DNA of 64,000 bases from a virus: positions 64,001 through 128,000 of IMG/VR virus record IMGVR_UViG_3300035670_000022, one strand, 5' to 3'. The stretch's first letter is position 1. Every line of letters starts with the position of its first letter. The notes under the pieces were generated by a model. The model saw only the letters and a program-made list of their open reading frames with translations. It had not been told where the DNA came from and ran no database searches. Shown piece after piece: positions 7,050 through 24,001 of the stretch. Both the position numbers and the translations under genes were made by a program.

Positions 7050-7283
7050 TTAACGGTAAATAAGATCTTCCCGTTTAGGGAGTTGATCAAGGAGCGTCGC
7101 AGCTCCTATGTAGGCGTCTAGGGCGCCGAATGTGTAAGATAACTCATGTTCACTTACATTTGGGAGACCCATTACAAAAGTGTAGGCTTGGAAGTAACTC
7201 AAGCCGTAGGTGTCTCGTAAGAACTCTTCTGCCGCATCTTCTGATGTGGCTAGCAGCGTTTTGAAAGTAGTGTAGTTATCCAT
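7050..7283 (-). CDS. Hypothetical protein
   Basis: AAGGAGG RBS; followed by a terminator hairpin. Confidence 0.75.
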   Translation of the reverse strand: MDNYTTFKTLLATSEDAAEEFLRDTYGLSYFQAYTFVMGLPNVSEHELSYTFGALDAYIGAATLLDQLPKREDLIYR

Positions 7284-7284
7284 G

Positions 7285-7407
7285 TTAGACCTCCTTTAGT
7301 CTTTTGATTAACTGCTTGGTTTTAGCCTTAACGGCTTTGAACTTGGCAGGAGCAAGGCGCTCCCGCTTCTTCTTGGCACCATCACGGTGCCAGTGTTTAA
7401 CAATCAT
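7285..7407 (-). CDS. 40-aa highly basic peptide (MIVKHWHRDGAKKKRERLAPAKFKAVKAKTKQLIKRLKEV)
   Basis: ATGA-coupled to the upstream ORF, GAGG RBS, ends 1 nt before the next start. Confidence 0.6.
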   Translation of the reverse strand: MIVKHWHRDGAKKKRERLAPAKFKAVKAKTKQLIKRLKEV

Positions 7408-7523
7408 AAGACCTCGTCGGTGTAGCCATTTTTCATGGCGTGGATTAGCACCGTTAAAGTAGCGATGCCGCTACCGAAAATGAATCCAAGTGTCATTCCA
7501 AGTGTGAGTAGAAAAATAGTCAT
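7404..7523 (-). CDS. 39-aa single-TM peptide (MTIFLLTLGMTLGFIFGSGIATLTVLIHAMKNGYTDEVL)
   Basis: AGGAG RBS; hydrophobic helix. Confidence 0.6.
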   Translation of the reverse strand: MTIFLLTLGMTLGFIFGSGIATLTVLIHAMKNGYTDEVL

Positions 7524-7559
7524 TATGATACTCCTAGTTAGAGTTAGCTAAACAGTTTT

Positions 7560-8737
7560 CGAGATGCTCCCACACAGCTAGGAGCTGTGCTTTTTGTTGG
7601 GCAATTTCGAATGCATCCTCGTACGATGTACGAGGCGCCGCAGCTAGAAGCTGCAAATATTCGAATAGTGTTATGTTCTCCGGCAGTGTATGCATGGAGA
7701 CCTCCTATATAATGATGGACAATACCCCCAGGTGGACACGATCCACAATTCCAGCCTACCTATGCGGCACTGGGGATCAACTTCGACTTCCTCACGGGTC
7801 TAGCCTTGTACAGTCGTCTAGATATACATTCGGGAGATATCAGCCTATCTACTGCTACCAGTAGCCAACACACAACGTTTTCCCTAATCCCCCGTAGAGG
7901 ATTGTGGGTATCGATCCCACGCCGTTGTGTGGATATATAACTTCTATCCGAAGATATGGCGGCTGGATACCCAGCTTGTGACCAGTCTTTACACGTAGGA
8001 AGGGCGACGGCCCTATAAAGTAGTTGTGGAAATGCGCCGTACAGGTACTGCCCCTGTCTACGCCACCTTATGAGGGTGGAGCCTCCCTTCTCGGCCAACG
8101 GCGCGGGTGTCCGGCTTAGTGTGTACAGCACTTGCCGGGCGTGTGTGACCTATAGAGCCTGTAATCCAACCAGTCACGTTCTCGTTGGCAGACCGCTATT
8201 CCCTTCCTCTACAAACTACTCAGAATAGCCAGTGTAGTTTGCCCCTTAACCCCAGGGCGGGTATACCTCTTAGATGACGAGTCTAAGAGGGATTCTAGCA
8301 GTTCGCTCAATTGAACGTTCACTATCGAGACTCCTTAGTGTGTTAGTGCCTCGATAGCTAGCTAGGAACTACTTATATTTCTGCCCGAAGGGCACGGATC
8401 AACACACTACCGATCTTTCAGTCACGAGGGCGACGGCCCCATTATAAAGATGTGGAGGGGTTTGATACCCCCAAGGATTCTGCAGTTGGTCAGACTACAT
8501 ATCCAACCACAGCTTTGTCTGTTCAAAGTGTCTTGCTCGCCATATCAGGTCCGCACACTCTTTTAGGTGTATATAGCCTTGCGAGCATCACCTAAACTAC
8601 AATCTTGACTGACCAAGCCCTAAGATTCTGACAGATTTGACTGTATCGCGTTACTTCCGCGCACACATCAACGTATCCATTTTAGAAGGCATTATCCCCC
8701 GAATACTAGAGGGGCCCATATGAGAGTTATCTCTCAT
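7560..8737 (-). ncRNA. Candidate large (~1.2 kb) structured non-coding RNA
   Basis: No credible ORF with an RBS; more than 20 hairpins and multibranch stems; cUUCGg loop on the minus strand; duplicated GGGCCGTCGCCCT hairpin; phage promoter motif immediately upstream (8739-8752). Confidence 0.6.
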
Positions 8738-8800
8738 GTACTCTTCTCTGTTGTAGAAAAAGAAAGAGTATCGGTTAAGACGACACTCTTCTTTGACTAA

Positions 8801-9187
8801 TTAAGCGAAAGATTCAGTTACAACTTTGACTTCAATAAGCCGTTCCCAGCCTGCGAATTCAAAGTAGAACTCACCTTCTCGGTTGACCCGATTGTTTTTA
8901 GCAAAGATAACCGGGCGGTCTCCCGCAATGCCTAAGACTTGTTGTTGTAAGTTGATAGGGCAGACAACTGCCAAGATATCAAACTCAGCTGCTATAGCTT
9001 TGAATGATTCGATTTGTACAGTATTAGGTGCCTCACCATGAGGCGTAATTTCAGCCTCAAACTGAACGTGTACATTAGGCATGGTGCCGTTGACTTGTAC
9101 AACTTCGATAGCGCCTAGTTTGGCTTTTAAAGCAGTAAACTGCTCATAGCTCATTTCATGGCGACTGAACCACATTACTTTGGTCAT
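8801..9187 (-). CDS. Small Rossmann-like protein, possibly Csx16-like
   Basis: WFSRH N-terminus and DILAVVCPINL segment; AAGGAG RBS; own promoter motif. Confidence 0.55.
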   Translation of the reverse strand: MTKVMWFSRHEMSYEQFTALKAKLGAIEVVQVNGTMPNVHVQFEAEITPHGEAPNTVQIESFKAIAAEFDILAVVCPINLQQQVLGIAGDRPVIFAKNNRVNREGEFYFEFAGWERLIEVKVVTESFA

Positions 9188-9268
9188 AAGATATCTCCTT
9201 AATTTCGTGTACTCTTCTCTGTTGCTTTAAAAAACACTAGCAGGTTATTAACCTGCTAGCGTTTAACA

Positions 9269-9439
9269 CTATCGGAACTTCTTGGTGGCTGCTATATAAG
9301 CAGCCACGTTCCGGCGATGCTCTTCACGAGCCTCCGCCATTTGGCGGATAAACTCCTCCGTCTCCCGACGGACAGCTTCTTTATGTGCTTCAATAGATGC
9401 GGCAAATTCTTCCGGATGATAGACCACAGATGTAGACAT
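9269..9439 (-). CDS. 56-aa helical hypothetical protein (MSTSVVYHPEEFAASIEAHKK...)
   Basis: AGGAG RBS; flanked by terminators. Confidence 0.6.
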   Translation of the reverse strand: MSTSVVYHPEEFAASIEAHKEAVRRETEEFIRQMAEAREEHRRNVAAYIAATKKFR

Positions 9440-9500
9440 AGTTTAGACTCCTAATTTGAATATGAATACGAAAAGCCCCCGAAGGCGGGGGCAGTAGCAA

Positions 9501-10271
9501 TTAGCGGCGACGACGACCGCTGGTGACAACTTTAGTCGCGCCACGGTTTACCGCAGGTAAGTCTACTTGAGACTTCCGTGCGGTCGGTGCGCCAGCTTTA
9601 ACGGCGGCTTGTTTGGCAACACCTACGGTACTGCCAATCAATTTACAGTCAGCCCATGCGACATTGGATAAGCCGACGGCGGGTTTTTTGGTCTGCGGAT
9701 TTAACCGCAATACCATGTCAAAGGTGACAATCCCGTCCGGGTTGGCTGCTACCACCCATAACCGCTTCGAAGAATGTTCGGTTGTGTACATGCACCCACG
9801 ACCGAAGTCTTCTTCATACTCTTCCCATAGTTCCGCATAGCGGATCAGGGATTCGAAGTCAGATTGGCTGATAACACCATTGTCAACAGACTCTTGACTG
9901 AATTCGATGGGCAAAGACCGCAGTCCTTTAATCCACTGTTGCCCTTTCGTCAGGGTTTTGCCTGTGGTGGCAGGCTGCATAGACCCATCAGGGTTCATAA
10001 CCCCTGACAGTCGTACTTTGACGGACACTTTTTCGGTGTTTTCGTCGTAGAAGGGGTCTTCTAAGACGATGCGAATCAAGTCGCATGATCCGTCTTCTGG
10101 TGCAAACTGCGAACGAGACATCAGACTTGTGTCAACAAAGAACTGATCGTACGCATCGCGCGCCTGCTCGATAAAACACTCGGGAATCCCCGCCAGTACT
10201 GTTTGCAGATCAGGATCTGCATATAGACCAGCGATGAACATTTCGGTGTTGGCGGCTTTGGCTTCTAACAT
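9501..10271 (-). CDS. Hypothetical protein with basic C-terminal tail
   Basis: AGGAG RBS; three promoter motifs upstream. Confidence 0.8.
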   Translation of the reverse strand: MLEAKAANTEMFIAGLYADPDLQTVLAGIPECFIEQARDAYDQFFVDTSLMSRSQFAPEDGSCDLIRIVLEDPFYDENTEKVSVKVRLSGVMNPDGSMQPATTGKTLTKGQQWIKGLRSLPIEFSQESVDNGVISQSDFESLIRYAELWEEYEEDFGRGCMYTTEHSSKRLWVVAANPDGIVTFDMVLRLNPQTKKPAVGLSNVAWADCKLIGSTVGVAKQAAVKAGAPTARKSQVDLPAVNRGATKVVTSGRRRR

Positions 10272-10535
10272 AGGTATAATCTCCTAATTGTTTATTCATG
10301 CACTCTTCTCTGTTGTTAGACAGGGTAGAGCAGGGCTATTTAGAACCCTAAAGGTTCTTTTTTATTCCCGTTTACTTCTCTCTGTTGTTCGTCTAGGTTG
10401 TTCTAGGTTGTTCTAGGCTTAAGCAGACACGCTCAGGTTGTCTGTCTTTGGGTTTTTAAGGAACGTGGCAACGTACTCCTCTCTGTAAAAAAAGGGGCAT
10501 GCGCCGCTGCATATGCAGGGGCGCATGCCAGCGTC

Positions 10536-11240
10536 CTATTTAGGACGCCGTCCGCTTCCGACCACTTTCGTGGTGGGAGCGGACTTTGCCCCTTTAGGGG
10601 CACCGCCCCCGAAGAGGGCGGAAACGTCCTCTACTGCAACGCAGTCGAGGGCGGCGTGCTCGGAGGGCTCTGCCCCTCCCGAGCCGCAAAAGACTGCATC
10701 ACTGCAGTCGAGGGCTGAGATATACAGCCCGTACTTGCCGCCGGCGGCAAGTTGGAACCGTACGGTTCCTTGCACCCACACAGGGTGCTCCTTTTGCCGA
10801 ACGGCAAAAGACTTCGAGTCTGCTTTAGCCTCGAAGTGATATTTGACCAGTTGGTCAAATATCTCCTCTGCCCCTTCTGGGGCAGAGTCGAACGCCACCT
10901 TGGCGTTCAACGTGAACCATTGGGGTTTACCCCCAAGGTTCGCGTCCTTCTGCGGAAGGACGGATTTTGGGTCGACAGACCCATAATCCACAGCCTTTCC
11001 GTGAAGGCTGATGCACGTAAGTGCAAACGACAGCACGTAAGTGCCGTCGTCGTACAGCGACGCGTCGGTAACGGTAAGCCCGAAGGGCTTCCGTTGACCG
11101 AAGAGATCGGGACCGATCTCTATGCAACTGTGTCCCGTTAGGAGACACAGTTGCATAGGCAGTCCGGAGGACTGCAGGTAGGCAGCGGCTGCTGCTTTGT
11201 CTTCGCCGAAGGTGGAGATAACGGAAGTGACGGTAGTCAT
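10536..11240 (-). CDS. Hypothetical protein with basic C-terminal tail
   Basis: Two promoter motifs upstream; terminator downstream. Confidence 0.8.
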   Translation of the reverse strand: MTTVTSVISTFGEDKAAAAAYLQSSGLPMQLCLLTGHSCIEIGPDLFGQRKPFGLTVTDASLYDDGTYVLSFALTCISLHGKAVDYGSVDPKSVLPQKDANLGGKPQWFTLNAKVAFDSAPEGAEEIFDQLVKYHFEAKADSKSFAVRQKEHPVWVQGTVRFQLAAGGKYGLYISALDCSDAVFCGSGGAEPSEHAALDCVAVEDVSALFGGGAPKGAKSAPTTKVVGSGRRPK

Positions 11241-11452
11241 GACGTTGACGGCTCGTAGAGCCGTAAGAAAGTGCTTGCACTTCTCTCTGTTTCTCCGGAC
11301 CCGAAGGGTCTGGAGACTCTCTCGAAGAGAGAGTTAAGAGTGCTTGCACTCTTCTCTGTTCCGCTCGTTAGAGCGGCATAGAAGACTTAGGGACCCGCGC
11401 GGAATAGGTAATGAGTTAGCTAGTTAGCGGGGCTAACTAGCAGAGGGTGATA

Positions 11453-14400
11453 TTACGAGAATTGGGTCTCCATCCAATCCAAAGCGATATCTGAAGTGTG
11501 GTAGGAGTCGACTAGCATGCTCCACATTTGCTCTGATGTAAGTTCGGAGTTAAATTCACAGTCTGTTGCAAAGTAGACTAAATCAGCTTTAGGAAAGCGA
11601 CTAGGTCCGACATACAAAGCAGCTTTATGCTGAGCCGGAATAGCTGTTACTTTACCTTTGCTGACGTAATACATATGCAGAACTCCCGGGCGGTTTATAG
11701 TCAAACCCTGGCTTTTCATTAGAGTCATAGCAAAACAAGGGTGCGCCGGGATTTGTCGGAAGGTTCCTATGGGACGACCCGACTTATCTTTAGGCCCTTC
11801 AAAGTCTGCATAGTCTAGAGTGATGACTTGCTTAGTAGTGTCTAGACGCACGTTGATAGAGTTTTTACCTAGTTTGGTAACTACTCCTGTGCTTCCATTA
11901 GCTGCAATAAGTGCACCGCCTCCGTTCTGTATGTTCTTACGAATCATTACAGGCATATCGACGCAGAAAGTCATCTCTTCTTCAATTGGATTAAAGATAG
12001 TGACAAACTCTTGCTTCTCGCCGTCGTAGGCTTTCTTCAGATACCAGTCTCCGAATTTACCTGTGACGTGGGCGCGATACGACTTGTTGTCTGCACCGTT
12101 AGCGATCATCTCAGCGGTCTTGCGGCTATTGTGCCGTTTTACTCCGATATTGTTGAAGTAGATGTGGATAGCATCTTCCGGAGCTTTGGTGGTAACACTA
12201 GCATCAAAGCGGTCTTTGATTAAGTTACCTTTCACGCCGGTTAATTGCAGCCGGTCCATACGTAACAGGTTAAGACAATCTACCCAGGCTTTATCTCCGT
12301 CGGCACGGATATTGTGCTTCAGGTTTATCATGACGAAGTCTCGGCGCTTAACAAAACTGCCGTAGCTGACATTGTTCTTTGCCCCTTTGATGAACACAGG
12401 TTCAAAGAAGAGGGAGCCTTTAACAGGTAAGAACTGCATTGGATCCCCTACTAACAGCCATTGAATGTTGATACCTTCTTCTATCGCAGCATCTTCGATG
12501 ATGTTTAAGAAGCGGTTGTCTACCATGCTGACTTCATCAACGATGACCATGAGTGGGCGTTTACCCAGGTAGTTCTTGGCGCTCTTGAAGAAGCGACTGT
12601 CTTTAACGTCTGACTTGAGTAGGTGGTACTCTTCGTACTCGCTACACTTTTTGCTCTCTGTTTTTTCGAATCCCAATTTGAGACCGAACATTGAGTTAAT
12701 TGTGCCGTCCCCACCGACGTTCATCACTGAAGTACCTGTAGAGCCAACAATGACGTAGGGGAGTTTGAGTAAGTCAAAGATGTGACGCGCTACTTCGACA
12801 CTGTAAGACTTGCCGCCTCCGCCTACACCGGTCAGCATAATATTGCTGCCATTAATAGCTTCAGCTACGACGTCTAACTGTCGAGCAGTCATGGTTTCTA
12901 GAGCGGGTAGGTAAGACTCCTCGTCTATAGTCGCATTGACGTTGGTGATTGCGTCGATAGCGGCTTGTAGAGCCTCGGGCTTACGTTTACGGTCTGCTTC
13001 TATCTCCATTTGGACTTTGGTCTCCTCTTGCTTAGCTTTTTTCTGTGCGTGTTTGCGTACCTTTTTAAGTGAGGGTACGATCTTTTTGCCTTTGCTGTTG
13101 ACAACAGGCTTAACAGATCCTACCTCTACTGTTTTAGGTTCTACAGATTTCTGTTTTTCCGCAACAGGGGTGGGAGTCTCTACTTTAAGAGACACTGCTT
13201 TAGAAAGAGGGATGTCTTCTGGTTCATCCTCGGGGGCATACATCTCAAAATCAGAAGATGTATCTTCGTCCTCGATTTGATCTTCAGACTCTTCAGGCGC
13301 TGTTAATACGTCAGACGCGTCTTCTGTGGTCATAGGTTTATCTTCGACCACTTTTACCGATGACAAAGAGACAAAATTAGAGATAGGGATCTCGTCATCC
13401 ATCTCGTAGTCATCATCAAAGTATACGCCTGTAGACTGATCTTCTTCTGTTTCGGGAACAGCAGCGTCAAAGCTGTCGTCTTGAGTACTTGTACTTTTCT
13501 CTGTTTCTACTAGAACCACAGGAATAGACTTGTATAAGTCGGTGATCTTTGTATGTAGAGTCTCAGGCATATCAGGCACTGTCTCAAGAATCATTAGCAA
13601 CATAGCAGCAACTTGGTTACCAGGATCAGGAGTCGACATAGGCTCTGCTTTGATAGCGGCAGAAGTGGGTTCAATCACTTCCGGCTGGTTGGGAGTAGTT
13701 GTTACCTCAACAGCAGGTTGCTCGTCAGCTGCTTCATCAAGTTCTATTAGAGCAGCTAACAAGTCTTCCTTCTTGCCGTTTAACTTAGGAACGGTATGCC
13801 CCGCGTCACGGTACTCTTTTAGCGCCTCTTTGATATCAGAGTAAGACAGAGAGGAGTACACGTCAGAAACAGAAGAGTCAACATCAGCTTCGACTTCAGC
13901 TTCGACTTCAGCTTCGACTTCAGCTTCATCTACTGGTTTAAGAGCAGGGTGATTAGTGTCGACCATCCAGTTGAGCATCTCAATGATGAGATCGCCGTGG
14001 CAAGGCAAAGGTGCGCAGAAGCAGACTAAGTCTTTTTGCTCTGCGTAGAGGCGGGCTAACTCATTCAGCACAACGCTGTCATTAGCATCTACCTTCTCTT
14101 GTAGCCAAACACGGTACAGTTCATAACACTCTTTCCGTGTGCCGTGTTTTCCAACGACAGCCTTGTTTGCTAGAACGCTACCTTTCTTGCCTTTACCAGG
14201 ACGTCCTATATACTCACCAAATACGCTGTCACCGTTTTTGATGTTTAAGACTTTCATAGTGCAGTGTCCTTCAGAAGATGTAGGAGGCTCAGAGTCTGAT
14301 TTAGGTTTAACCATACGTACAGTGACGTTATAGCGGACACCTTCACCACCTTCGTTGCCTTCATAGCCGTGGCGGGCGTAGCGTTTGTTGCCATAGAAGA

Positions 14401-17400
14401 CAATCAAATCACCATCGCCTACCTCGTATTTCTCTCCGTCTATTTGGAAGATACCGCTCTGGCCGAAGCTGAAAGACACAATAGGAGCATCTACTTCTTC
14501 GTCTTTATCGACGTGAAGGTTCAGCTTCTGTGCGCCTGCATATCGATTAATTAGACAGGTTTGAGCCTCGTACCCATCAAAGATGTCCAGTTGGGCGACT
14601 ATCTTTTCAGCAGTCTCTTTTAGAATGTTAGGCATCTCAACCACAGGCGAACCAGACGGCTGAGTGTTAAGGTATCGACCTTTACCTTTATTCCATACCC
14701 AGAATTGCTGACCAGCACAGGTATAACTGTAGCTCTTGGCTGTAAAGCGCGTCTTCTCACCATCTTCAAAGGTCTCTTCAATGGCTGCTCGTAGCTCATC
14801 ATAGATTCCCTCGTCTTGGCAATAGGATTGCTGAATGTACAGCCCGTCTTCGGTGTATACCGTCAACTCTTCTTTGTCGGACTCGGTGCGAAGCGCGTCT
14901 CGAACTTTCATAAGAAGGACGCCTTGCATGTTCTTACCTTGACGTTTCTTATTCACGCCCCAGAACGTGTCCCAGGGAGAGAGGTGTACAAGGTCGATAT
15001 CTTCTGTTTCTAACAGTTGAGTACGAGCAGGCTCATGGCTGAATTTGCCAAGCAGGACCTCGTACATTACATCGACTTTTACTTGTTCCCAGTCTTTTCG
15101 TAGCCTTACTTTTGCACCTTTAGCCTTTGCCTGTTTACCGTTCATAGCCGCGAACTCTTTAATAAGAGCGTGGCTCGGGTTGAGCACTTTGGCACACTGA
15201 TAGGCTCCCTCTGCTGTTGCATACTCTACGCCTTTGTATGTACAGGGTGCCCCCAGGAAGTTACTAAACTCTTTATACGTAGGCGTATAGGAGTTAAATA
15301 AGATGCAGTCGCCTTCCCAAGTGTCTTTATCTGCCGGATGCTCTTGTTGGGCTTCTACTTCCTGTTGTGCTTTAAGCATAGCCACGTTGATCACAGTGGT
15401 GTTCTTAACACGTTTGATGTTCTTCTTGCTACCAGGAGAAACGCCGTCCCAGATGACGAGACTCTCATCACAGTTACGATGCATCTTTTCATCCCGAGCA
15501 GTGAAGTCACCGTAGACAGCATAGGTTTCAAAGTCACCTACATTGTTGCGGCATCCTTTGCGGGAAGAGTACCAAACGCGCACGTTGGTGACACCTTGCT
15601 CAAAGAGATAGCTTTGTACAAGCATGTCTACACCAGCAGCATCACCAACGTTGAAGTTAAAGCCCTGATCGATATAGCTGTCGATCACATCTAAGGCTTC
15701 TTCAGGTAGACGTTTGATAGAACGGCTGCCAGAGATCACCACTTGGGTGTGATTTACCTCTAACTCTTCCGTAGACGTATCCTCTTCAGTGTCAGAAGAG
15801 TCAACAGATTCACCGCCGTCTCCATCGTCGTTAGGCTCATCGTCGGTCGGCTCTACACCGCCGTCAGAGTCATCTTCATCAGAGTCGTCTTCTTCTTCTT
15901 CGGTAATACCATCGTTAAAGTTATGGATCACAGAGAAGAAGTTGTCTTTACTCTCTTCGACAGAGTGGATCTCTTTCAAGAAGAAGTTTAGGTCGGCATC
16001 AGACCACTCGAGAGTGCTGATTTGAGTGTAGTCGTACATCTCTTTACCGAGAACTTCGTCTAGCTGAGAGAGAGACATTAGCGGAACGTTGGTTTGAAGC
16101 ACTTTAGCCCCTGTGGGGTGAGACTTAAGTGCGTTTAGCCACGCTATACTTTCTTGATAGATGACAGTATCCCCAAAGTAGAAGTTACCGCGGCCACCTT
16201 GGAAGATCGTATAAAGCAAGTAGGAAATCCCGTAGGTGGGGGTCTCTTTACCTCGCTTAACTACGTAATAGTCTTGCAGGAGGTGCATAGCAATTGTTAC
16301 CTCTTCCGCTAATTCGCAGTTAGCGCCGAGTTCAGCCAACGTTTCTTCTACTTTGTCCTCTAGGGCACGCTCTAAACGCATTTCTCCCAGCAGGGTTTCT
16401 AGAACTGTGCAGTTAGCAACAGCAACCTCATCGGTAACATTGCATTCTCGCAGGTTCAGAACCATGAGGTCGATCGTCTTGGTGCGAGGCATATCCAGAC
16501 GGGTGCTACGTAGACGATCATAGGCTTCTGCTACATCAAAGCGAATAAACTCGTCATCCCAGTTGGATAGGATTCCATGTAGCTCTTGAGTAACTTCAGC
16601 ATTGGCAAAGTCTTTAATCTTAACGGACTGTTTGCTGCAGCCGTCGTAGATAGATTTACCAAACATGATCGGCTTTAAGAATCGTTCCCAGAGAGATACA
16701 CCGCCGGGGCTGAATCCGCCGAGCATAATCTCGTACACTTCTGCCAAGACCAGCATGAGTTTGTTGATCTGAGTTTGACGATACTTGTCTAGCTCTAAAG
16801 GCACGAATGCACTTAGACCTTCAACACCGTCTTCACCAAACAAGTCCAACTTATCTAACTCGCCGATGATGCTAACCGCAAGCATACCGAGCATGTATGC
16901 AGCGTACATAACACCAACACCGACGTGCTGAATGCTGTATGCCAGGAAGTTGTATTTGACTAGATCTGAGCTGTTGATCATAGCCTTCTCTGGCAGTGCT
17001 TCTGCTAACTTGTTGATAACTACAGATGCATCTTTGTAAGACTTGATGGTGTAGTGGTCAGCAGCGTAATCCCCGCATGTGGGAGAGAACATGTCCATAC
17101 CTATAGCAGCGGAGCGCAGTTCACGAACCTTTTCATAGGTGGTGATGTGCTTAAGGCTCAGGTGCTTACAGTGAGTGATAAAGTGGTTATCACCATCATC
17201 GTCACCACCGTCTAGGTTGACAGACATAGCACTGACGCCGAATTGTACGGGGCTAATCTCGTACGCAAGAAGAGTATTGTCTTGAACCTCATCAGCAAAA
17301 GGTACACGTCGTTGTCCAAGATAGACCTCGACAGTTTCTTTACCGGTTTCGGTCTCGACTTCAACTTTCTCCCATACCTCTTCGATTAAACGAACCCGTT

Positions 17401-20400
17401 CAATCGGACCCATAGGCATAGGCGCACGGTTACCGCACGTAATTACACCTTCGGCTACAGACTGGCGGTCTAGAGGAATACCGCTACGTAGACACTCTTG
17501 ATATGGAGAGGAGACGACGTTGGTTTCTAGAATCCAGACTTCTCCTACAGGAATAGCAGGGTGACCGATACGCTTCGCACCGACTGCTTTATCGCCAGAG
17601 AAATACTTGCGGGAGTTCTTAGATGTAGCTAGAGAGTTAAGCACACCGCCGACCTGGTTAAGGGCGATCTGTTGCTTTTCGCTACCACCATTGATACACG
17701 GGATAAGTATTTCGAAGAAGAACATGGAGACGAAGTCCAAGTTATCATCGCTCTTGCGAGTCAGCTTAGAAAAAGCCAGCATGGCAGGGAGCCACATGGA
17801 CACTTTACCTTCTCCGGTTTCAAAGACGAAGACCATATCCTGAGTTGCTTCGGCAACCAGGCGGAAGAGGTTGTCTTGATGCGGATCAATCTGTCCAGGC
17901 TCAATACCGACTTTGCGTAGACGCTCATCCATAAGATCCTGACACTCGTTGCTGGTGTCATCTCCACCAAAGCAGATGCCTTCTTCATCAACGATGATGG
18001 ACACTACTTTGAGATTAGGATTAATGGTATTCCCAGCATTGAACGCGGCTAGCGCTTTAGCACGGTACAGCGCTTCTTTACCGCAGGACACCATACGACG
18101 CTGCTCAGCCAATACATCTTCGTCGTCCCCAGCTACAATGCTCAAGGACATGATATAAGGCAACAACTGAACGGAGGTCGTTACGGCTTCTGCTACCGTA
18201 GAAGACTCGAATAGCTCTACGTTGTAGAGTTGAGCTTCAGGTACGGAGAGGTACATTACGCCACGTTGTGCGACTTCTACCACTTTTCCGTCTTTAAGAA
18301 CAAAGGCGAGAATGTTGCTTTCCCACTCAATTTCTTTCTGCTCAGAGACTACGTAGAGGTTATCTCCTAAGTTGGCTAATTCAGGTAGGTACTCTAAATA
18401 GTTCTCTACGTGATACCACGCTGCCTTCCGTGCTTTTTCGTTCTCTTCGGTGTCAGGAAGTAATCCGGCGGCTACTTTCTCTTGGTAGAGGTCATACATA
18501 ACACGACCCATACCTTCAGCCTGTATCCAGTGAAGCCAGCGGGCTTGACCGAAGATGCTGTCGAAGTACTTATACATCTCATCATAGATACCAGCAGCAA
18601 CAGCAGCGGGCTCGATGATAAGCACGGGTTTGCCGTCGACCAGATTCTCGTGTCCTACCAACTGACGGTTGATGTCAGAGATATATTCACGAAGGGTCTT
18701 AACCACGTCTGTTTCTACTTCGTTGTAGAACGCAGTGTTGGCAATTATGAAGCACATCGCATAGCCCAAGTCGAGCTTAAGGCTATCTTGCAGGTGTAGT
18801 CCGTGTACAGTGATCTCGTCCGAGTTAAGGTCAGAGTTTAGATCATTGAACAAGATAGCAGGCGTAGCCGTAAAGAACTGCGACTTGTTAACACTACGAG
18901 ACTTCATATCAAACTCGCGGCGTTTGATGAAGTACTCGATGCTGAGATACTCAGTGCTGTTATCCATACCGACAACAACGCGCCAGCGGAAGTAGGTTAA
19001 CTGACCCTCTACACGGTGTTGATGGTAGATGGGAATCGTTCCGTGTACGCCGAAGAGGATCTCTTTACCTGTTCCGTTAACGAGCACCTCATCTTGCGGA
19101 GTGACATACATCCAGCCGTCTTCGCTCTCTACACTGTCCCAGGTGTTTTCGATCACACCGGTAACATTAGTTTGAGTAAAGTCGAACGGAGAACCGTCTA
19201 CTATATCAAACGTGTTACGGACAATTAGAATGCGTTGATCCGGGTTTGCTTCCGGTTTGTCTTTCTGTTCACCCAAGAACGCGGACATACCAGGCAGGTT
19301 AACGTGGCTCGGCGCATAGGCAGTCTTATCTAACCAGCCGTAGGTGGCATACTTCTGGTCGATAAGTTTAGCCGCAGAAGGCTGCTCGTCTTTGACGCTC
19401 TCAGCTTGAGCCATCCACAAAGACACCCGCTTCAGGAGTTTCTTCGCCTTCAACGAGTTGACGATTACTTTTCCTGCTTCGATTTCGCAGCCAAAGTTGC
19501 TGACGATCTTAGCGAACAGGTTCGGTGCATGCTTGCTGACCAAGTCTAGATTGACGTGACCCAAGGCACCAGCAACAAACTGTCCTTTGGTGTGGTGGAA
19601 GTCTAACCCATACTGCTCATGGGCCATTTCCATCACAATGTCCATCACTTCAGCAATTTCGATAGAGTCATCAAAGACAGCTGCAGTTTCGATCATTTGA
19701 AACTCTTCGTCTATGTCTGCCTCTACACCGCTGTAGCGTTCAGGTAGGACTTTAGCAGCCTTACCCTCTAGAGCAACCCACTTCCCATTACTGTTCAGCG
19801 GTGTGCGCTCTTTGAACATCACGGTGGAGAAGGTGTTGATGAGCAAGTGGTGTGCAGCACCGTTTTGGTCTAACACTCGGTCCGTAGTCATCTTAAAGAT
19901 GTTGCCCATCTTTTGCAGACATGACTTCACATTCTCTAATGTGGTAGAGAAAATGCCGGCGCTGCCAGACCAGTTAGAGAGGATAGGCAAGTACACGAGC
20001 CAGATGAAGTACATAAACATACTCAGGCTGGTGACTAACTTGATTTCTACCTCGTAGGGGCTGCCCTTAGGATCGGCTTTCTTCTCTTCTTTTGTCTTTT
20101 TACGTCCGTTGACAACAAGACAGCTATTGAAAGCACGACCACGCCAGTCATAGACAGTACCGTCGTCATCGAAGTAGAAAGCAGCAGCGCCGTCTATCTT
20201 AAGCGCTTTCATGCCATCTATCTCTACGAAGTCCAAGACTCCTTTGATATCGACAGCCTTACGGTTACGGCTCCGCTTTGTCTTCTTACCAGCGACTTCC
20301 ATCATGTCTTGAATGATGGTGATAACACCTTCAATCTCAGACAGTTGCCAGTCGTAGTCTAAGATTGGCATGTCGATGGTTGAGCAGGCATACTTGTCCC

Positions 20401-23400
20401 GCTCAGAGCAGAACCCACGTAAGTAGTAGGCTACTGCGTAAGCAGCTTTTTGAGCAGCACTACATTTCGTAGGGGGCTCTTGTCCCCGGAACAGCTCTTC
20501 AAAGACTGCCGTTTCGTTCAGCATCATGTCGTTTACGACTTCTTCTACTGTATAGAAGTCCTCGCTACGATTTCCGCTGGTCGGGTGATTTAACGCCTCG
20601 TACAGACTTTGTAGCTCTTCAGCGTAACCAGCTAGAACTTTGGGTTCTGCTTTAGCCGCAGGAGGTGTCGGAGGAGTAGAAGTGACAGGAGGAGTAGCGG
20701 GCGGAGCAGCTATTTTAGAAGGAGTAGAAGTAGCTACTTTAGAAGGAGTAGACTTTGTCACTTCCGCTTTAGACTTCACGCGACGACGACCACTCTTAGG
20801 TAGAGAAGTAGTAGTCTTAGCAGAGCGCTCTAAGAACGTGAAGTAGTTGTTATCGCTCCGGGGAGTTTCGAAGTCGATTAACTCTTCTACTACATCGCAC
20901 GGAACGAAGTAGGCTTCAATCCGGTCGCAGTACGGACGGTATTGTCCTTGACTGAGAACACCGTTCTCGTCTGGACGACGATTATCCGTCAGAATATCTA
21001 CTCGTCCGACGAGAAGCAAATAGTATTGCTCCACTTCTAACCCAGGGATGCCTCCATGTTCGCTCTGCAGGTTATCTAACGAGTTGTGGACAACGATCGT
21101 TTGCCCATGTTTTTCTAGAGCGGAAACAAACCGTGTATTTCCTGTGTACACGGCTTTACGGATGATGTTCCGAACGGAAGAAGCGGTAGCGCCTGCTTCC
21201 GCACGACCTGCGACTTTGTCTTTAAGGTCGTGCTCGTTATTAACCAACGACTCGAAGTTCATATGGTGCGACACCTTGTCGTTAAACACCACATTTTCGA
21301 TGTTGGTGTAGGCAGCATCGCGGAACTGCCAACTTGCCTTCTTGGCGTTGGCGATCGGAGCATACAAACGAGCCGGGGTCGCTCCGATAGTAGAAGCAGT
21401 CCAACCTTCTTTAGCTTCTTGTTTGTAGTCGAAGCCTAAGAAGTTGCTGATGGGCAGCACCCGATGTTTGCTGTCGTCCGCCGCAGCATATAACTCGGCA
21501 TAGTGCGGTTTTGCTTTCGGCACAGGGTTAAAGTGTGCGTTAGCGTTACACCGCTGCTCTCCGTAGCGACAGAGGACTACATAGAGAGGATCGCTCTCTT
21601 GAATGGGAGCTGCGTCTACGTGCATTAATGTGAACGCAGGGATGCAACCCATCTCTTCAGGAGACTTAGTAAAGTGCATAGGAGCACCTACTTTTATCTC
21701 CATGTTTTTGTTTGCGCTATTACTGGTGCGACGCTTCATTGTTTGCTCCTTATTAATGGTAGCCAGTCCTATTTCTAGGGGTGTTACGCCTAGTTCGCTG
21801 ACAATGTCAGACCATTTAGATCCGTTTGTCAGCAAGGACCGAATGTTGCTTGCTGTCTCAGCGTCTACCAAGTCAGCTGGGTCAAAATGACCAGCACGGT
21901 AGACCTCCAGCAAATAGCTGGCGACAGTATCATCCTTGGTCTCACTCTTCGCCTCCTTACGGTAGGTAGATGCCAAGTCTGCTAGCATGTCCTCTAGCTT
22001 TTCTTCTGTTTTCAAGACACGTGTCCAGATGTCAATCACGATCTTGTGACGATGACTTAGCTGATTTTGTTCAGCTTTTGGTTTTTCTGTCTTTTTACTC
22101 TTCTCTGTTTTTGCTACAGGCTGTTTGTTAGGCACCCCGTAGTTGAGAGCCACTTCTAGGGAAGTAACTCCCAATTCCGTCTCTAGGTCTTTATAGGCCA
22201 CTCCTTCTGCCTTCAGATCTTGAATCTGCTCGTGTATCTCTGTAGATACATAGGCAGAGCAGTCTACCAACCCAGCGTCGTATGCTTTCTTTAGATACCC
22301 GACGATGGTTGAGTATGCCGCCTCACTTTTGTTAATTGCTCGGTAGCGTCGGACTAAGGAGTCCAACTTCTGCTGCAGATCGACGTTTTTAGCGTCTATC
22401 TTCTCCCACAGTTCAGCTATCTGCTGAATTGATGATGGAGTTTTCTGTGCGGACGTGGTCGGAGTTCCTCGTTTTTTGGCATACTTACTCATTGGACGCG
22501 GAGTTTTGCTCCGCTTGAAGACCATAGTTGCCTCCGGTACACCCTCTGCCGATGCAGCACATCGTGCCTCGGCGAGAGCCATAAACTCGGCCGGTACGGC
22601 CACGGGTTCAGATTCTGAACCGTTCAGAATCTCAGCCATGATGGCTGTCCCTGCGGCGTAGGCGGCTTCTGCCTTTTGTTCTTCCGTCTTATTGGCTAGG
22701 TAGACGGTTTTGTCTACCTTTTTGATGTTGCCAATCATCTTCCGACCTTCCGCCGCCCGGCGACGGTTTTGGATAGCGAGAGGCAACTCCGCCTCCTCTT
22801 GGGCGCGAAGGGCCCGTTGGCGACGGACTACAGAAGCCGGGATGGGGGCCTCGGTGCCGTTCGCCAACCAAATGGCGTTGTTACCTGCACGGAGGGCAGC
22901 GGACTTAGCGGCTTTGGTGATGACCGCATACTTAGCCGCCCGCTCGGATGCAATGTAAGCAGCCAGGAGTTTAGCCTCCGCCCGACGTTGGGCTTTGGCT
23001 AGTTGCTTCTCATACCCGGACTTAGTCTGGGGTTTGAGGTTACGGCGTTGTACCGCTTTGTTGCGACGTTGACGTTTAACCCGCTGGGTGCGGGCAATTG
23101 ATTGATTCACAGTCATTGATTTACGGACACGACGACGTGCCCGGGTAGAGGTGGTACCAACAGTGGTAGCGATGTCGGCAATGACATCAGCTACGGCGAC
23201 CATTACGGTCACGTTGGCATAGGCAAAAGTGCCCACACCGCCTGCACGTTTTTGTGCAGTGCCTTTGCGGGGGGCAGTGAGACGGAGAACCGCGTCCAAG
23301 GTGAATGCGGCACGGTTAGCCGTGCGGCGCTCAGTGTAGTGAGCAGAGATGACATCAGAGATGTCATTGGCTACGGCACCAGCGAATGCCATAGTAGCAG

Positions 23401-24001
23401 CGGTAGTGAGGGTAGCAGGGGCAAAGCGTACAACTTTGTGCGCAGTGTAGACACGGGGAGCACCCGTGGGGGTGCTGACGGTGTGGGTAGGGGCAACCCA
23501 GGAGGGTGCCGGAGTGGTGAATACACCTTTGAATCCGGGGGCAGCTTGCTTAGGAGCAGCTTTGGGAGCCCACACTACACGAGTGTTCCAAGCTGCTGCT
23601 TGGGCTGCCATAGGGTCAGCAACACCCCATCCTTTGATCTCCGCCATGCGGAGGTCAATATCACCAGCAGCGGTGATAGCGTCAGCGGTAGCTACAGCGG
23701 CAGCTACAGAAGAGGAAGCAGGAGCCTTGTAGCCAGTCCAGGTGCGGACTACATCCACCTTCTTGCCTTTCTTCTGCACGTGTACGTGCACTTTCCCGTA
23801 GTAGGAAAGGAACTCTTGGCGGGGTAGGCGGGCACCTACCGCAGAGTTCTTAATTACAGCGCCGGCGTTCCAGCGTTGGCTGGAACGGCTCCAGCTGTTA
23901 GTGTGTACGGTGCGCGGGGAGACCTCACGGACAGCTTGCTGAATCGAGCGAGCGAAGAAAGAGATAACGGAAACGGAAACGGACATTTTGAAGTTAGACA
24001 T
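11453..24001 (-). CDS. 4182-aa polyprotein: putative single-chain double-psi-barrel RNA polymerase fused to SLOG, NADAR, AlkB-type 2OG-Fe(II) dioxygenase, DUF4326 and Pif1-like helicase domains
   Basis: KSRSVNK (aa ~1700), NRAP (aa 2191), GGDDDGD (aa 2265); SGSRSI/GDAAGVD (SLOG); FSNF/WEQVKVDVM/DTFWG/GKNMQG (NADAR); LHVD...HG...RYNVTVR (AlkB); YIGRP/CFCAPLPCHGD (DUF4326); GVGGGGKS/DEVSM/GDPMQ/KSQG (SF1B helicase). Confidence 0.75.
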   Translation of the reverse strand: MSNFKMSVSVSVISFFARSIQQAVREVSPRTVHTNSWSRSSQRWNAGAVIKNSAVGARLPRQEFLSYYGKVHVHVQKKGKKVDVVRTWTGYKAPASSSVAAAVATADAITAAGDIDLRMAEIKGWGVADPMAAQAAAWNTRVVWAPKAAPKQAAPGFKGVFTTPAPSWVAPTHTVSTPTGAPRVYTAHKVVRFAPATLTTAATMAFAGAVANDISDVISAHYTERRTANRAAFTLDAVLRLTAPRKGTAQKRAGGVGTFAYANVTVMVAVADVIADIATTVGTTSTRARRRVRKSMTVNQSIARTQRVKRQRRNKAVQRRNLKPQTKSGYEKQLAKAQRRAEAKLLAAYIASERAAKYAVITKAAKSAALRAGNNAIWLANGTEAPIPASVVRRQRALRAQEEAELPLAIQNRRRAAEGRKMIGNIKKVDKTVYLANKTEEQKAEAAYAAGTAIMAEILNGSESEPVAVPAEFMALAEARCAASAEGVPEATMVFKRSKTPRPMSKYAKKRGTPTTSAQKTPSSIQQIAELWEKIDAKNVDLQQKLDSLVRRYRAINKSEAAYSTIVGYLKKAYDAGLVDCSAYVSTEIHEQIQDLKAEGVAYKDLETELGVTSLEVALNYGVPNKQPVAKTEKSKKTEKPKAEQNQLSHRHKIVIDIWTRVLKTEEKLEDMLADLASTYRKEAKSETKDDTVASYLLEVYRAGHFDPADLVDAETASNIRSLLTNGSKWSDIVSELGVTPLEIGLATINKEQTMKRRTSNSANKNMEIKVGAPMHFTKSPEEMGCIPAFTLMHVDAAPIQESDPLYVVLCRYGEQRCNANAHFNPVPKAKPHYAELYAAADDSKHRVLPISNFLGFDYKQEAKEGWTASTIGATPARLYAPIANAKKASWQFRDAAYTNIENVVFNDKVSHHMNFESLVNNEHDLKDKVAGRAEAGATASSVRNIIRKAVYTGNTRFVSALEKHGQTIVVHNSLDNLQSEHGGIPGLEVEQYYLLLVGRVDILTDNRRPDENGVLSQGQYRPYCDRIEAYFVPCDVVEELIDFETPRSDNNYFTFLERSAKTTTSLPKSGRRRVKSKAEVTKSTPSKVATSTPSKIAAPPATPPVTSTPPTPPAAKAEPKVLAGYAEELQSLYEALNHPTSGNRSEDFYTVEEVVNDMMLNETAVFEELFRGQEPPTKCSAAQKAAYAVAYYLRGFCSERDKYACSTIDMPILDYDWQLSEIEGVITIIQDMMEVAGKKTKRSRNRKAVDIKGVLDFVEIDGMKALKIDGAAAFYFDDDGTVYDWRGRAFNSCLVVNGRKKTKEEKKADPKGSPYEVEIKLVTSLSMFMYFIWLVYLPILSNWSGSAGIFSTTLENVKSCLQKMGNIFKMTTDRVLDQNGAAHHLLINTFSTVMFKERTPLNSNGKWVALEGKAAKVLPERYSGVEADIDEEFQMIETAAVFDDSIEIAEVMDIVMEMAHEQYGLDFHHTKGQFVAGALGHVNLDLVSKHAPNLFAKIVSNFGCEIEAGKVIVNSLKAKKLLKRVSLWMAQAESVKDEQPSAAKLIDQKYATYGWLDKTAYAPSHVNLPGMSAFLGEQKDKPEANPDQRILIVRNTFDIVDGSPFDFTQTNVTGVIENTWDSVESEDGWMYVTPQDEVLVNGTGKEILFGVHGTIPIYHQHRVEGQLTYFRWRVVVGMDNSTEYLSIEYFIKRREFDMKSRSVNKSQFFTATPAILFNDLNSDLNSDEITVHGLHLQDSLKLDLGYAMCFIIANTAFYNEVETDVVKTLREYISDINRQLVGHENLVDGKPVLIIEPAAVAAGIYDEMYKYFDSIFGQARWLHWIQAEGMGRVMYDLYQEKVAAGLLPDTEENEKARKAAWYHVENYLEYLPELANLGDNLYVVSEQKEIEWESNILAFVLKDGKVVEVAQRGVMYLSVPEAQLYNVELFESSTVAEAVTTSVQLLPYIMSLSIVAGDDEDVLAEQRRMVSCGKEALYRAKALAAFNAGNTINPNLKVVSIIVDEEGICFGGDDTSNECQDLMDERLRKVGIEPGQIDPHQDNLFRLVAEATQDMVFVFETGEGKVSMWLPAMLAFSKLTRKSDDNLDFVSMFFFEILIPCINGGSEKQQIALNQVGGVLNSLATSKNSRKYFSGDKAVGAKRIGHPAIPVGEVWILETNVVSSPYQECLRSGIPLDRQSVAEGVITCGNRAPMPMGPIERVRLIEEVWEKVEVETETGKETVEVYLGQRRVPFADEVQDNTLLAYEISPVQFGVSAMSVNLDGGDDDGDNHFITHCKHLSLKHITTYEKVRELRSAAIGMDMFSPTCGDYAADHYTIKSYKDASVVINKLAEALPEKAMINSSDLVKYNFLAYSIQHVGVGVMYAAYMLGMLAVSIIGELDKLDLFGEDGVEGLSAFVPLELDKYRQTQINKLMLVLAEVYEIMLGGFSPGGVSLWERFLKPIMFGKSIYDGCSKQSVKIKDFANAEVTQELHGILSNWDDEFIRFDVAEAYDRLRSTRLDMPRTKTIDLMVLNLRECNVTDEVAVANCTVLETLLGEMRLERALEDKVEETLAELGANCELAEEVTIAMHLLQDYYVVKRGKETPTYGISYLLYTIFQGGRGNFYFGDTVIYQESIAWLNALKSHPTGAKVLQTNVPLMSLSQLDEVLGKEMYDYTQISTLEWSDADLNFFLKEIHSVEESKDNFFSVIHNFNDGITEEEEDDSDEDDSDGGVEPTDDEPNDDGDGGESVDSSDTEEDTSTEELEVNHTQVVISGSRSIKRLPEEALDVIDSYIDQGFNFNVGDAAGVDMLVQSYLFEQGVTNVRVWYSSRKGCRNNVGDFETYAVYGDFTARDEKMHRNCDESLVIWDGVSPGSKKNIKRVKNTTVINVAMLKAQQEVEAQQEHPADKDTWEGDCILFNSYTPTYKEFSNFLGAPCTYKGVEYATAEGAYQCAKVLNPSHALIKEFAAMNGKQAKAKGAKVRLRKDWEQVKVDVMYEVLLGKFSHEPARTQLLETEDIDLVHLSPWDTFWGVNKKRQGKNMQGVLLMKVRDALRTESDKEELTVYTEDGLYIQQSYCQDEGIYDELRAAIEETFEDGEKTRFTAKSYSYTCAGQQFWVWNKGKGRYLNTQPSGSPVVEMPNILKETAEKIVAQLDIFDGYEAQTCLINRYAGAQKLNLHVDKDEEVDAPIVSFSFGQSGIFQIDGEKYEVGDGDLIVFYGNKRYARHGYEGNEGGEGVRYNVTVRMVKPKSDSEPPTSSEGHCTMKVLNIKNGDSVFGEYIGRPGKGKKGSVLANKAVVGKHGTRKECYELYRVWLQEKVDANDSVVLNELARLYAEQKDLVCFCAPLPCHGDLIIEMLNWMVDTNHPALKPVDEAEVEAEVEAEVEADVDSSVSDVYSSLSYSDIKEALKEYRDAGHTVPKLNGKKEDLLAALIELDEAADEQPAVEVTTTPNQPEVIEPTSAAIKAEPMSTPDPGNQVAAMLLMILETVPDMPETLHTKITDLYKSIPVVLVETEKSTSTQDDSFDAAVPETEEDQSTGVYFDDDYEMDDEIPISNFVSLSSVKVVEDKPMTTEDASDVLTAPEESEDQIEDEDTSSDFEMYAPEDEPEDIPLSKAVSLKVETPTPVAEKQKSVEPKTVEVGSVKPVVNSKGKKIVPSLKKVRKHAQKKAKQEETKVQMEIEADRKRKPEALQAAIDAITNVNATIDEESYLPALETMTARQLDVVAEAINGSNIMLTGVGGGGKSYSVEVARHIFDLLKLPYVIVGSTGTSVMNVGGDGTINSMFGLKLGFEKTESKKCSEYEEYHLLKSDVKDSRFFKSAKNYLGKRPLMVIVDEVSMVDNRFLNIIEDAAIEEGINIQWLLVGDPMQFLPVKGSLFFEPVFIKGAKNNVSYGSFVKRRDFVMINLKHNIRADGDKAWVDCLNLLRMDRLQLTGVKGNLIKDRFDASVTTKAPEDAIHIYFNNIGVKRHNSRKTAEMIANGADNKSYRAHVTGKFGDWYLKKAYDGEKQEFVTIFNPIEEEMTFCVDMPVMIRKNIQNGGGALIAANGSTGVVTKLGKNSINVRLDTTKQVITLDYADFEGPKDKSGRPIGTFRQIPAHPCFAMTLMKSQGLTINRPGVLHMYYVSKGKVTAIPAQHKAALYVGPSRFPKADLVYFATDCEFNSELTSEQMWSMLVDSYHTSDIALDWMETQFS
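22613..22629. repeat. 17-bp palindrome, copy 3
   Basis: Exact sequence inside the 4182-aa gene; extends to 22610-22632. Confidence 0.85.

Follow-up and report, generated by a model that had tools for sequence, protein, structure and literature searches.

A giant phage protein with an RNA-polymerase-like core, a C-terminal helicase and a variable slot for putative lesion-reversal and counter-defence enzymes

The stretch of DNA analysed here (the window, 64,000 nucleotides, nt) covers positions 64001-128000 of a 155.9-kb linear viral contig, IMG/VR record IMGVR_UViG_3300035670_000022, and encodes a giant protein of 4182 amino acids (aa), P0001, in a single open reading frame (ORF) without stops. 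In P0001 and its relatives an RNA-polymerase-like core and a helicase form a conserved scaffold, and the “toolkit” of small enzymes between them is a variable, shuffled insert. An earlier note, made from the sequence alone, had described an RNA polymerase fused to damage-reversal and anti-defence domains and a Pif1-like helicase. All of the domains it listed were recovered at essentially the same coordinates, in one uninterrupted ORF with the polymerase-like core, but the division into scaffold and insert, which is the most informative fact about this protein, had been missed. The slot domains and helicase make up the C-terminal third of P0001, which is laid out as follows, with the coordinates of the earlier note in brackets.

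11453..24001, minus strand: giant ORF of P0001, 4182 aa, stop codon included
16562..19204, minus strand: two-barrel RNA-polymerase-like core, aa 1600-2480, from a structural model and its matches
18881..18910, minus strand: Lys/Arg-rich motif of the first barrel, aa 1698-1707
17189..17206, minus strand: GDxDGD metal-binding motif, aa 2266-2271, from family alignments
15752..15916, minus strand: acidic linker, aa 2696-2750, 51% Asp/Glu and 0% Lys/Arg (15770-15900)
15386..15748, minus strand: SLOG domain (YpsA/DprA-like), aa 2752-2872, by fold match (about 15400-15745)
14867..15319, minus strand: NADAR domain, His-type, aa 2895-3045, by PF08719 (14885-15300)
14297..14860, minus strand: AlkB-like Fe(II)/2-oxoglutarate (2OG) dioxygenase, aa 3048-3235, by PF13532 (14310-14870)
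13979..14221, minus strand: DUF4326, aa 3261-3341, by PF14216 (13960-14260)
12932..13951, minus strand: low-complexity spacer, aa 3351-3690 (340 aa), by composition
13884..13927, no strand assigned: 12-nt x 3.7 perfect tandem repeat, (EAEV)n, at the start of the spacer, by repeat search
13739..13849, minus strand: possible SAP-like DNA-binding motif, weak, aa 3385-3421 (Pfam SAP E 0.061, below threshold)
11582..12904, minus strand: superfamily 1B (SF1B) helicase, Dda/RecD/Pif1-like, aa 3700-4140, by PHROG 325 and AAA_19 (11500-12900)
12829-12806, minus strand: Walker A of the helicase
12541-12524, minus strand: Walker B (DE) of the helicase
11725-11705, minus strand: helicase motif V, TLMKSQG
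11614-11597, minus strand: helicase motif VI, YVGPSR

The contig comes from subsurface metagenomes, with three runs of one study holding at least 86% of the sampled words of the stretch, and the genome is estimated to be 88% complete (CheckV). The phage is a myovirus, with tail sheath, major capsid protein and portal genes at 48-63 kb of the window, and its nearest cultured kin by capsid protein are Microcystis/Microcoleus phages of the Ma-LMM01 group (~28% identity).

The division into scaffold and slot emerged from a family search, in which a profile of aa 1600-2700 was compared with 1.84 billion representative proteins. Each P0001 domain was then run in a local phmmer census against the 62 relatives so obtained, many of which have lengths of 2000-4500 aa. 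The core was found in 61 of the 62 and the core together with the helicase in 27, counts which refer to a set of representatives that includes some fragments. In nearly all of the 27 the helicase ends no more than about 135 aa from the protein C-terminus, and the gap from core to helicase spans 213-1576 aa among the relatives. Divergent inserts are undercounted, because P0001's own domains served as queries, and the slot contents detected include:

P0001: SLOG-NADAR-AlkB-DUF4326
P0002: NADAR-AlkB-SLOG
P0003: AlkB and a 25-residue SLOG remnant
P0011: AlkB-NADAR
P0014: NADAR
P0025: NADAR...DUF4326
P0030: SLOG
P0012: AlkB, placed N-terminal of the core

Pfam searches of 13 distant members added DUF4326 in four of them, and DUF7831, Amidoligase_2 and RNase_H once each. 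The Amidoligase_2 domain in the variable slot of one distant member may be compared with a free-standing ORF of the window (25810-27183, minus strand), which has a weak PHROG amidoligase match (5.5e-6) and no Pfam match. The inserts and the scaffold differ in how well they are conserved. The NADAR of P0001 shares 51-52% identity with its counterparts in P0011 and P0014, the cores of which are only 24-27% identical to the P0001 core, and 44% with that of P0002, the closest relative (core 48%). Likewise, its SLOG domain is 59% identical to that of P0030 and its DUF4326 54% identical to that of P0025 (core 25% in each case). Since conservation is higher in the inserts than in the scaffold, and the two are incongruent, these sequence comparisons suggest that the inserts are under selection, have been exchanged between phages, or both. 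Relatives of the core were not found in IMG/VR, scanned with the single protein and with an alignment, nor among GenBank phages by megablast or tblastn, nor by a word-indexed search for shorter proteins.

A protein of this length could be an assembly artefact joining separate genes, and the contigs of all four runs do indeed break at the 12-nt tandem repeat (13884-13927), with uncovered bins in X2 and X4. Continuity at the repeat rests on overlapping unitigs, the source assembly and homologs. However, one 9138-nt Logan contig covers the core through DUF4326, and in a third sample one contig runs from AlkB to the end of the core. Furthermore, homologs in other assemblies encode a single ORF, not separate genes: the giant ORF recurs between ordinary genes in two relatives from other runs (46-49% identity from end to end), about 25 further, more distant relatives from other samples hold the core and C-terminal helicase within one ORF, and distant members on 24-32-kb contigs also carry the giant ORF with flanking genes. 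As the repeat period is a multiple of three, which preserves the reading frame, and all fused homologs have the helicase at their C-terminus, a chimera is very unlikely. Another contig, present in three runs, shares ~43 nt of the repeat with 3 mismatches.

The core was recognised by structure. An AlphaFold2 (AF2) model from a 34-sequence alignment had a predicted local distance difference test score (pLDDT) of 86 and a predicted template modelling score of 0.84, and VIA-align matched it to QDE-1 at Z 8.9 (260 aa, model residues 95-849, both barrels covered), followed by Pol I (Z 8.8), Pol II (8.5), P74 gp62 (8.3), archaeal A' (8.2) and P23-45 gp96 (7.6), with isolated double-psi barrels at Z 8-9. 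In a Foldseek search of the PDB, two-barrel polymerases dominated the list, with QDE-1 first, and no match reached E<=1e-3. The GDxDGD motif is near-invariant in family alignments of 45 and 34 sequences and invariant in three close homologs, and a K, an R and a K of the Lys/Arg-rich motif are near-invariant across the family, hence both a DxDGD metal site and conserved basic residues on the other barrel are present at fold level. Because the Z values are moderate, we accept aa 1600-2480 as an RNA-polymerase-like two-barrel core at the level of the modelled fold only. P0001 was the sole match of the core profile in the 155.9-kb genome, and Pfam gave no domain in its N-terminal 1249 aa. A deep contig found in all four runs (63-343x coverage vs 3-26x for the phage) matches the core at 17403-17434 and 18198-18229, two conserved 32-nt stretches with 3 mismatches and a spacing of 784 nt vs 763; it probably stems from a related phage that outnumbers this one in these samples.

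Beyond the acidic linker, the length of which differs among homologs, the first slot domain is SLOG. An AF2 model from four sequences (pLDDT 85.7) aligned with B. subtilis YpsA (2nx2) at Z 12.8 over 131 of 133 residues (root-mean-square deviation 3.1, VIA-align), and further matches were DprA (Z 11.7), ShosA (11.3), LOG (10.8) and ThsA (7.8). Among the best 21 VIA rows we take DprA, ShosA, LOG, TRPM and ThsA to be SLOG members, with three structural-genomics rows unplaced. The model is Rossmannoid, with a Gly-rich loop behind strand 1 and a GxGxD-type helix cap, and the motif G-D-A-x-G-V-D is kept in four of four homologs. As the model aligns to YpsA with SLOG members among the next matches, the domain is confirmed at fold level. 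It falls short of the Pfam YAcAr family (PF10686, E 0.18, 12.1 bits vs cut-off 28.2), Foldseek found no PDB match at E<=1e-3, and a sequence search returned two standalone homologs only, both unannotated. Support for the fold of this domain, as for that of the core, comes solely from VIA-align and from the make-up of the hit lists.

The other three slot domains were all found by Pfam. NADAR matches PF08719 over aa 2906-3038 (nt 15286-14888; E 3e-24, 86.6 bits vs cut-off 35.1) and E. coli YbiA (2b3w) at E 1.4e-15, an alignment in which the catalytic Glu and Asp-x2-Trp are retained and a His, present in five of six NADARs of the family, replaces the Glu of the YbiA family. At this distinguishing position Glu marks the YbiA family, Asp the DarT1-linked NADARs and His the phage gp30.3 type (PMC11125620, PMC11543638). 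The domain is not a member of Pfam Phage_30_3 (PF08010, 19.6 bits vs cut-off 36, with the first ~55 residues aligned). The AlkB-like domain matches PF13532 over aa 3089-3229 (E 1.7e-21, 77.8 bits vs cut-off 31.2) and E. coli AlkB at E 7e-12, with the HxD...H iron triad and RxNxTxR 2OG-binding motif aligned; we take the aligned residues of the E. coli enzyme to be H131, D133, H187, R204 and R210. The iron and 2OG ligands are invariant in three close homologs. DUF4326 matches PF14216 (E 3.6e-14, 53.6 bits vs cut-off 25), shares a Cys-x-Cys-x-Pro-x2-Cys-His motif near its C-terminus with P0025 and P0010, and reads Ala-Asn-Lys at its Gly-Asn-Pro motif. The spacer which follows had been called long and acidic, which describes its first 270 aa (26% acidic) but not its last 70 aa, which are basic. 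It is poorly conserved and variable in length among homologs, and the candidate SAP-like segment within it is conserved in P0002.

The helicase is supported by PHROG 325, “Dda-like helicase” (E 5.5e-39, aa 3496-4138), by AAA_19 (E 2.3e-7, 31.5 bits vs cut-off 25.1) and by Bacteroides Pif1 (5ftb, E 4e-7). Among solved structures, Bacteroides Pif1 is thus the nearest to the helicase by sequence, as E. coli YbiA is to NADAR and E. coli AlkB to the AlkB-like domain. The earlier label “Pif1-like” is loose, the Pfam PIF1 family (PF05970) being matched at 17.7 bits vs a cut-off of 25.9, which P0002 just passes (27.2), and from its sequence the domain is best called Dda/RecD/Pif1-like. Similarly, TLMKSQG and YVGPSR lie where they had been reported as deviant motifs, but they deviate only at positions which also vary among relatives; the T, Q, G and T of motif V and the V, S and R of motif VI, invariant in 13 distant relatives, are all retained, as are Walker A and B, GDxxQ of motif III and the Arg of motif VI. 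With the key residues of AlkB, NADAR and the helicase kept, these domains are, as judged by sequence, not catalytically dead. Neither of the two objections foreseen in the earlier note, separate genes in validated assemblies and dead domains, was thus borne out.

The earlier note had interpreted the fusion as a polymerase whose enzymes strip host-imposed base modifications from its template, or as a processed polyprotein, and this interpretation is supported in part. From these parts we propose a polyvalent polymerase-helicase, in which enzymes for lesion reversal and counter-defence would be brought by the scaffold to the single-stranded nucleic acid it generates. We lean narrowly towards this reading, in which we infer the activities, their action in cis on the template and when and by what route the protein is delivered, and the functions of all domains are predicted from homology. 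A single-chain two-barrel core of the QDE-1, crAss gp66 and P23-45 class would be permanently coupled to a C-terminal 5'-3' SF1B helicase, which would open duplex phage DNA for a class of polymerase that prefers single-stranded templates; on the non-template strand, such a helicase would move the same way as a polymerase reading 3'-5'. The linker-flanked slot between the two would be filled with different small enzymes by different phages. In P0001 these would be SLOG, with a predicted role in binding or cleaving derivatives of ADP-ribose or of nucleotides, a phage-type NADAR that may strip ADP-ribose from guanine in single-stranded DNA and so counter DarT1-type toxins, AlkB, for oxidative removal of 1-methyladenine (1mA)/3-methylcytosine (3mC)-type lesions from single-stranded DNA or RNA, and DUF4326, predicted to process ADP-ribose phosphates. 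Tethered in this way, the enzymes would be held at single-stranded phage nucleic acid, the site of DarT-type and alkylation lesions, where they could clear blocks to transcription and neutralise ADP-ribose-based defence.

Several of these steps have precedents. Lesions of the 1mA and 3mC type arise in single strands. AlkB removes both (PMC2553587). DarT1 ADP-ribosylates guanine in single-stranded DNA, a modification which NADARs reverse, and all tested NADARs hydrolyse guanine-ADP-ribose (PMC11125620, PMC11543638). The statement of the earlier note that NADARs, including the antitoxin DarG1, undo the DarT1 modification is borne out by this literature, and phage NADARs overcome DarTG1 (PMC11543638, PMC11257639). 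Fusions of SLOG, NADAR and DUF4326 recur in phages and are predicted to be ADP-ribose processors (PMC9503650, PMC7824862). As for the scaffold, crAss gp66 accepts single-stranded or denatured DNA as a template, though not duplex DNA, and QDE-1 depends on RPA and on a separate helicase, QDE-3 (10.1101/2020.03.07.982082).

Other observations weigh against the proposal. PDB and Pfam sequence searches give the core no support, and its fold matches are moderate (Z 7.6-8.9; Foldseek E ~0.02). The (EAEV)n repeat, which separates DUF4326 from the helicase part, is not crossed by any single Logan contig. Phage SLOG, NADAR and DUF4326 domains are predicted to degrade soluble ADP-ribose signals, for which tethering is unnecessary (PMC9503650), and in one study neither T4 gp30.3 nor E. 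coli YbiA rescued DarT1 toxicity, although both were able to hydrolyse guanine-ADP-ribose in vitro (PMC11125620), hence the specificity of a NADAR is not readable from its sequence. The genome also encodes a sigma-70-family factor, which suggests that the host polymerase is used as well. Finally, the P0001 gene is surrounded by small unknown ORFs ~24 kb from the portal/capsid genes, with the same context in the related locus L005, so packaging is not indicated by context.

This last point bears equally on a different use of the fusion, as a delivery polyprotein which co-expresses or co-packages enzymes, is cleaved at its acidic linkers (a prohead protease being one candidate) and acts as separate parts, much like polyvalent proteins or the internal proteins that T4 injects along with its DNA. 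The linkers between domains are long, non-conserved and acidic or of low complexity, and the order of the domains changes freely from homolog to homolog, which speaks against a fixed geometry between them. Polyvalent proteins have been described as virion-embedded multi-domain effectors (PMC5512222, PMC9503650), and in Ma-LMM01 the standalone homolog of the core, gp064, falls in the middle-class subclass B5 and not early B1, a timing compatible with packaging. However, no protease domain or known cleavage motif and no MuF or other packaging domain was found in P0001, and its gene stands outside the head-morphogenesis module. The strictly C-terminal position of the helicase, which 27 members have in common, suggests that it works together with the core and is not simply delivered with it, and we consider a delivery polyprotein rather unlikely. 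Somewhat less doubtful, though still on the unlikely side, is that the cassette targets RNA or soluble signals instead of the DNA template, with AlkB and NADAR cleaning nascent transcripts and SLOG, NADAR and DUF4326 degrading ADP-ribose-derived messengers. Action of the slot enzymes on nascent RNA, by analogy with viral AlkB, is the alternative that we set beside our own proposal: AlkB domains embedded in viral replicase polyproteins repair RNA (PMC2553587), and two papers link NADARs to reversal of RNA and cytidine ADP-ribosylation (PMC11833690, PMC12945103). For soluble signals, Iyer et al. predict processing of ADP-ribose derivatives by phage SLOG, NADAR and DUF4326 (PMC9503650), and the ThsA domain that binds cyclic ADP-ribose is among the closest solved SLOG folds. 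Against this, the sole function demonstrated for a phage NADAR is to take ADP-ribose off DNA (PMC11257639), the AlkB-like domain is matched best by E. coli AlkB, which repairs both DNA and RNA, and degradation of soluble signals gives no obvious reason for a conserved insertion between polymerase and helicase.

P0001 might instead serve replication and repair, the core making primers or origin transcripts, the helicase acting Dda-like at forks and AlkB and NADAR cleaning the replication template. Primase-helicases are typically polymerase-helicase fusions. The helicase of P0001 is the only SF1B helicase of the 88%-complete genome, in which a DnaB-type helicase, a family-B polymerase and a Prim-Pol were not found, and DarT blocks replication (PMC11257639). 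Yet the genome has its own DnaG-type primase and family-A DNA polymerase, the characterised single-chain two-barrel phage enzymes are all transcriptases, and a phage-specific promoter-like motif stands ahead of many genes. The sigma factor, primase and DNA polymerase together speak for transcription rather than priming, with shared use of the host polymerase, and we regard a replication machine as improbable.

If the polymerase-helicase reading is correct, counter-defence enzymes would not be free proteins but physically attached to the apparatus by which phage DNA is read, which would be a new route past DarT-type DNA ADP-ribosylation and alkylation. It would also explain how a polymerase class that prefers single strands could work on a duplex genome, namely with its own helicase. 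The variable slot would then be a natural catalogue, and the unannotated inserts of relatives (up to ~1500 aa) would be promising places to look for anti-defence enzymes. More tentatively, and as a possibility that we do not favour, P0001 could be a phage transcription machine of a kind not recognised before: a sigma-independent two-barrel polymerase which uses its own helicase to generate single-stranded template, and which has a plug-in slot of enzymes erasing ADP-ribosyl and alkyl marks set by the host, or ADP-ribose signals, could perform “self-cleaning” transcription which is itself a form of counter-defence.

Two smaller features of the window adjoin or lie within the giant gene.

13492..13505, minus strand: internal copy of the motif AACAGAGAAGAGTA, 1 mismatch, in the spacer, by motif scan
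10536..11240, minus strand: conserved gene just downstream of the giant gene, 234 aa, with syntenic homologs behind the giant gene in relatives

The 14-nt motif AACAGAGAAGAGTA has 16 copies in the genome at <=2 mismatches vs 0.8 expected. Fourteen of the 16 belong to the minus strand, where most stand 23-107 nt ahead of an ORF of that strand, and those of the window (minus strand) lie at 4717-11360, 13492, 22096, 30327 and 52140. The motif is placed as a phage-specific promoter would be and we describe it as promoter-like and putative. Two copies are inside the giant gene, where both encode Thr-Glu-Lys-Ser, and no copy lies directly upstream of it. After the copy at 13492, the next in-frame ATG with GGAG upstream is Met3665 (nt 13009), and since this copy stands ahead of the helicase part, a helicase-only isoform starting from Met3665 is conceivable.

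Upstream of the giant gene, behind the preceding gene, a GC-rich hairpin followed by a T-run (24440-24470, minus strand) resembles an intrinsic terminator; an N4-like hairpin promoter was considered here and is disfavoured. A small hydrophobic ORF (24117-24346, ~76 aa) lies between this hairpin and the giant gene. On the downstream side, homologs of the 234-aa gene were found at L001 13225-13899 (39% identity) and L005 17382-18107 (22%), and in two further contigs genes of 238-241 aa come after the giant gene; Pfam detected no domain in the 234-aa gene or in neighbouring genes. Outside the window, at 20.9-21.7, 31.9-33.2 and 47.46-47.66 kb of the contig (G000:C1), the encoded genes include the DnaG-type primase, family-A DNA polymerase and sigma-70-family factor, and at 38.4-45.3 and 145.3-155.9 kb are a 2305-aa Ig/PKD-repeat protein and a 3533-aa ORF which has no Pfam match and reaches the contig end.

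A second giant ORF of the window (35630-47599, minus strand, 3989 aa) is divergent from the portal/capsid module and has GDxDGD at ~aa 2753. Its positional equivalent in the Microcystis phage MaMV-DC is ORF82L (3560 aa, beside structural genes), with a near-identical motif at aa 2540. Searches of Pfam, PHROG and the PDB, and hhalign against the core profile, all gave no match for the second giant ORF. It may be a candidate second, perhaps virion, two-barrel polymerase, and Fukuivirus-like phages may carry two giant polymerases, one virion and one non-virion.

The components of P0001 are all of known kinds, such as phage two-barrel polymerases and polyvalent proteins, and we did not find their combination described in the literature searched. 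A jumbo-phage survey was the sole publication found in which NADAR, AlkB, helicase, RNA polymerase and phage occur together, and there they are separate proteins. Like P0001, the single-chain enzymes phi14:2 gp66 of crAss-like phages, P23-45 gp96 (virion), gp64/P74 gp62 (non-virion) and QDE-1 have two double-psi barrels in one chain, a DxDGD-type metal site and giant or fused proteins; the class prefers single-stranded templates, and QDE-1, P74 gp62 and P23-45 gp96 are among the best structural matches of the P0001 core. Unlike P0001, with which they share no detectable sequence similarity, they are described without a fused helicase or lesion-reversal enzymes, and the P23-45 polymerase is instead fused to a tape measure protein.

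Polyvalent proteins (PMC5512222) resemble P0001 in carrying many enzymatic conflict-related domains per polypeptide with rampant shuffling among homologs, and P0001 has both features, with several such domains and architectures that vary among its homologs. It differs in having a polymerase-helicase as the scaffold and a gene outside the head module, and in the text of the polyvalent-protein paper (PMC5512222) NADAR, AlkB, SLOG and Dda are absent, while RNA polymerase appears there only as that of N4 or as something targeted in the host. The phage NADARs active against DarTG1, among them AdfN/T4 gp30.3 (PMC11257639, PMC11125620), share the NADAR fold, Glu, Asp-x2-Trp and His with P0001, but are free-standing proteins of ~150-170 aa, whereas its NADAR is embedded in 4182 aa. 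In jumbo phages and giant viruses, SLOG-Macro/NADAR-DUF4326 fusions (PMC7824862, PMC9503650) hold the same trio in one polypeptide, although as short standalone proteins, occasionally with a helicase or helix-turn-helix, and P0001 adds AlkB to the trio and has the whole set within a polymerase. In architecture, P0001 comes closest to the AlkB-bearing replicases of plant RNA viruses. These replicases also carry an SF1 helicase. In the replicase polyproteins of Flexiviridae, polymerase and AlkB are in one product and AlkB repairs the viral nucleic acid (PMC2553587), but the polymerase has the palm fold of an RNA-dependent RNA polymerase, the genomes are RNA and the hosts eukaryotic, so we read this resemblance as convergent architecture, not homology.

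The best viral structural match to the core is the hypothetical protein MaMV-DC ORF65L/Ma-LMM01 gp064 (BFVD, E 7e-14, 853 columns), which aligns with the core profile at E 3.5e-5 by hhalign and has the GDxDGD motif; the core profile run against the MaMV-DC genome gave no match. ORF65L (NC_029002.1 49224-54257)/gp064 has ~1675 aa and neither the cassette nor a fused helicase. In the Microcystis phage a related SF1B helicase is a separate gene, and the major capsid protein is 28% identical to that of the P0001 phage. The ten early genes of Ma-LMM01 lie directly downstream of gp064. A transcriptome study of Ma-LMM01 recognised no phage polymerase, phage-specific promoter motifs or phage sigma factor, and the phage has been described as dependent on the host polymerase (PMC5780444). 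If our reading of P0001 holds, it points to polymerase-like genes in Microcystis phages.

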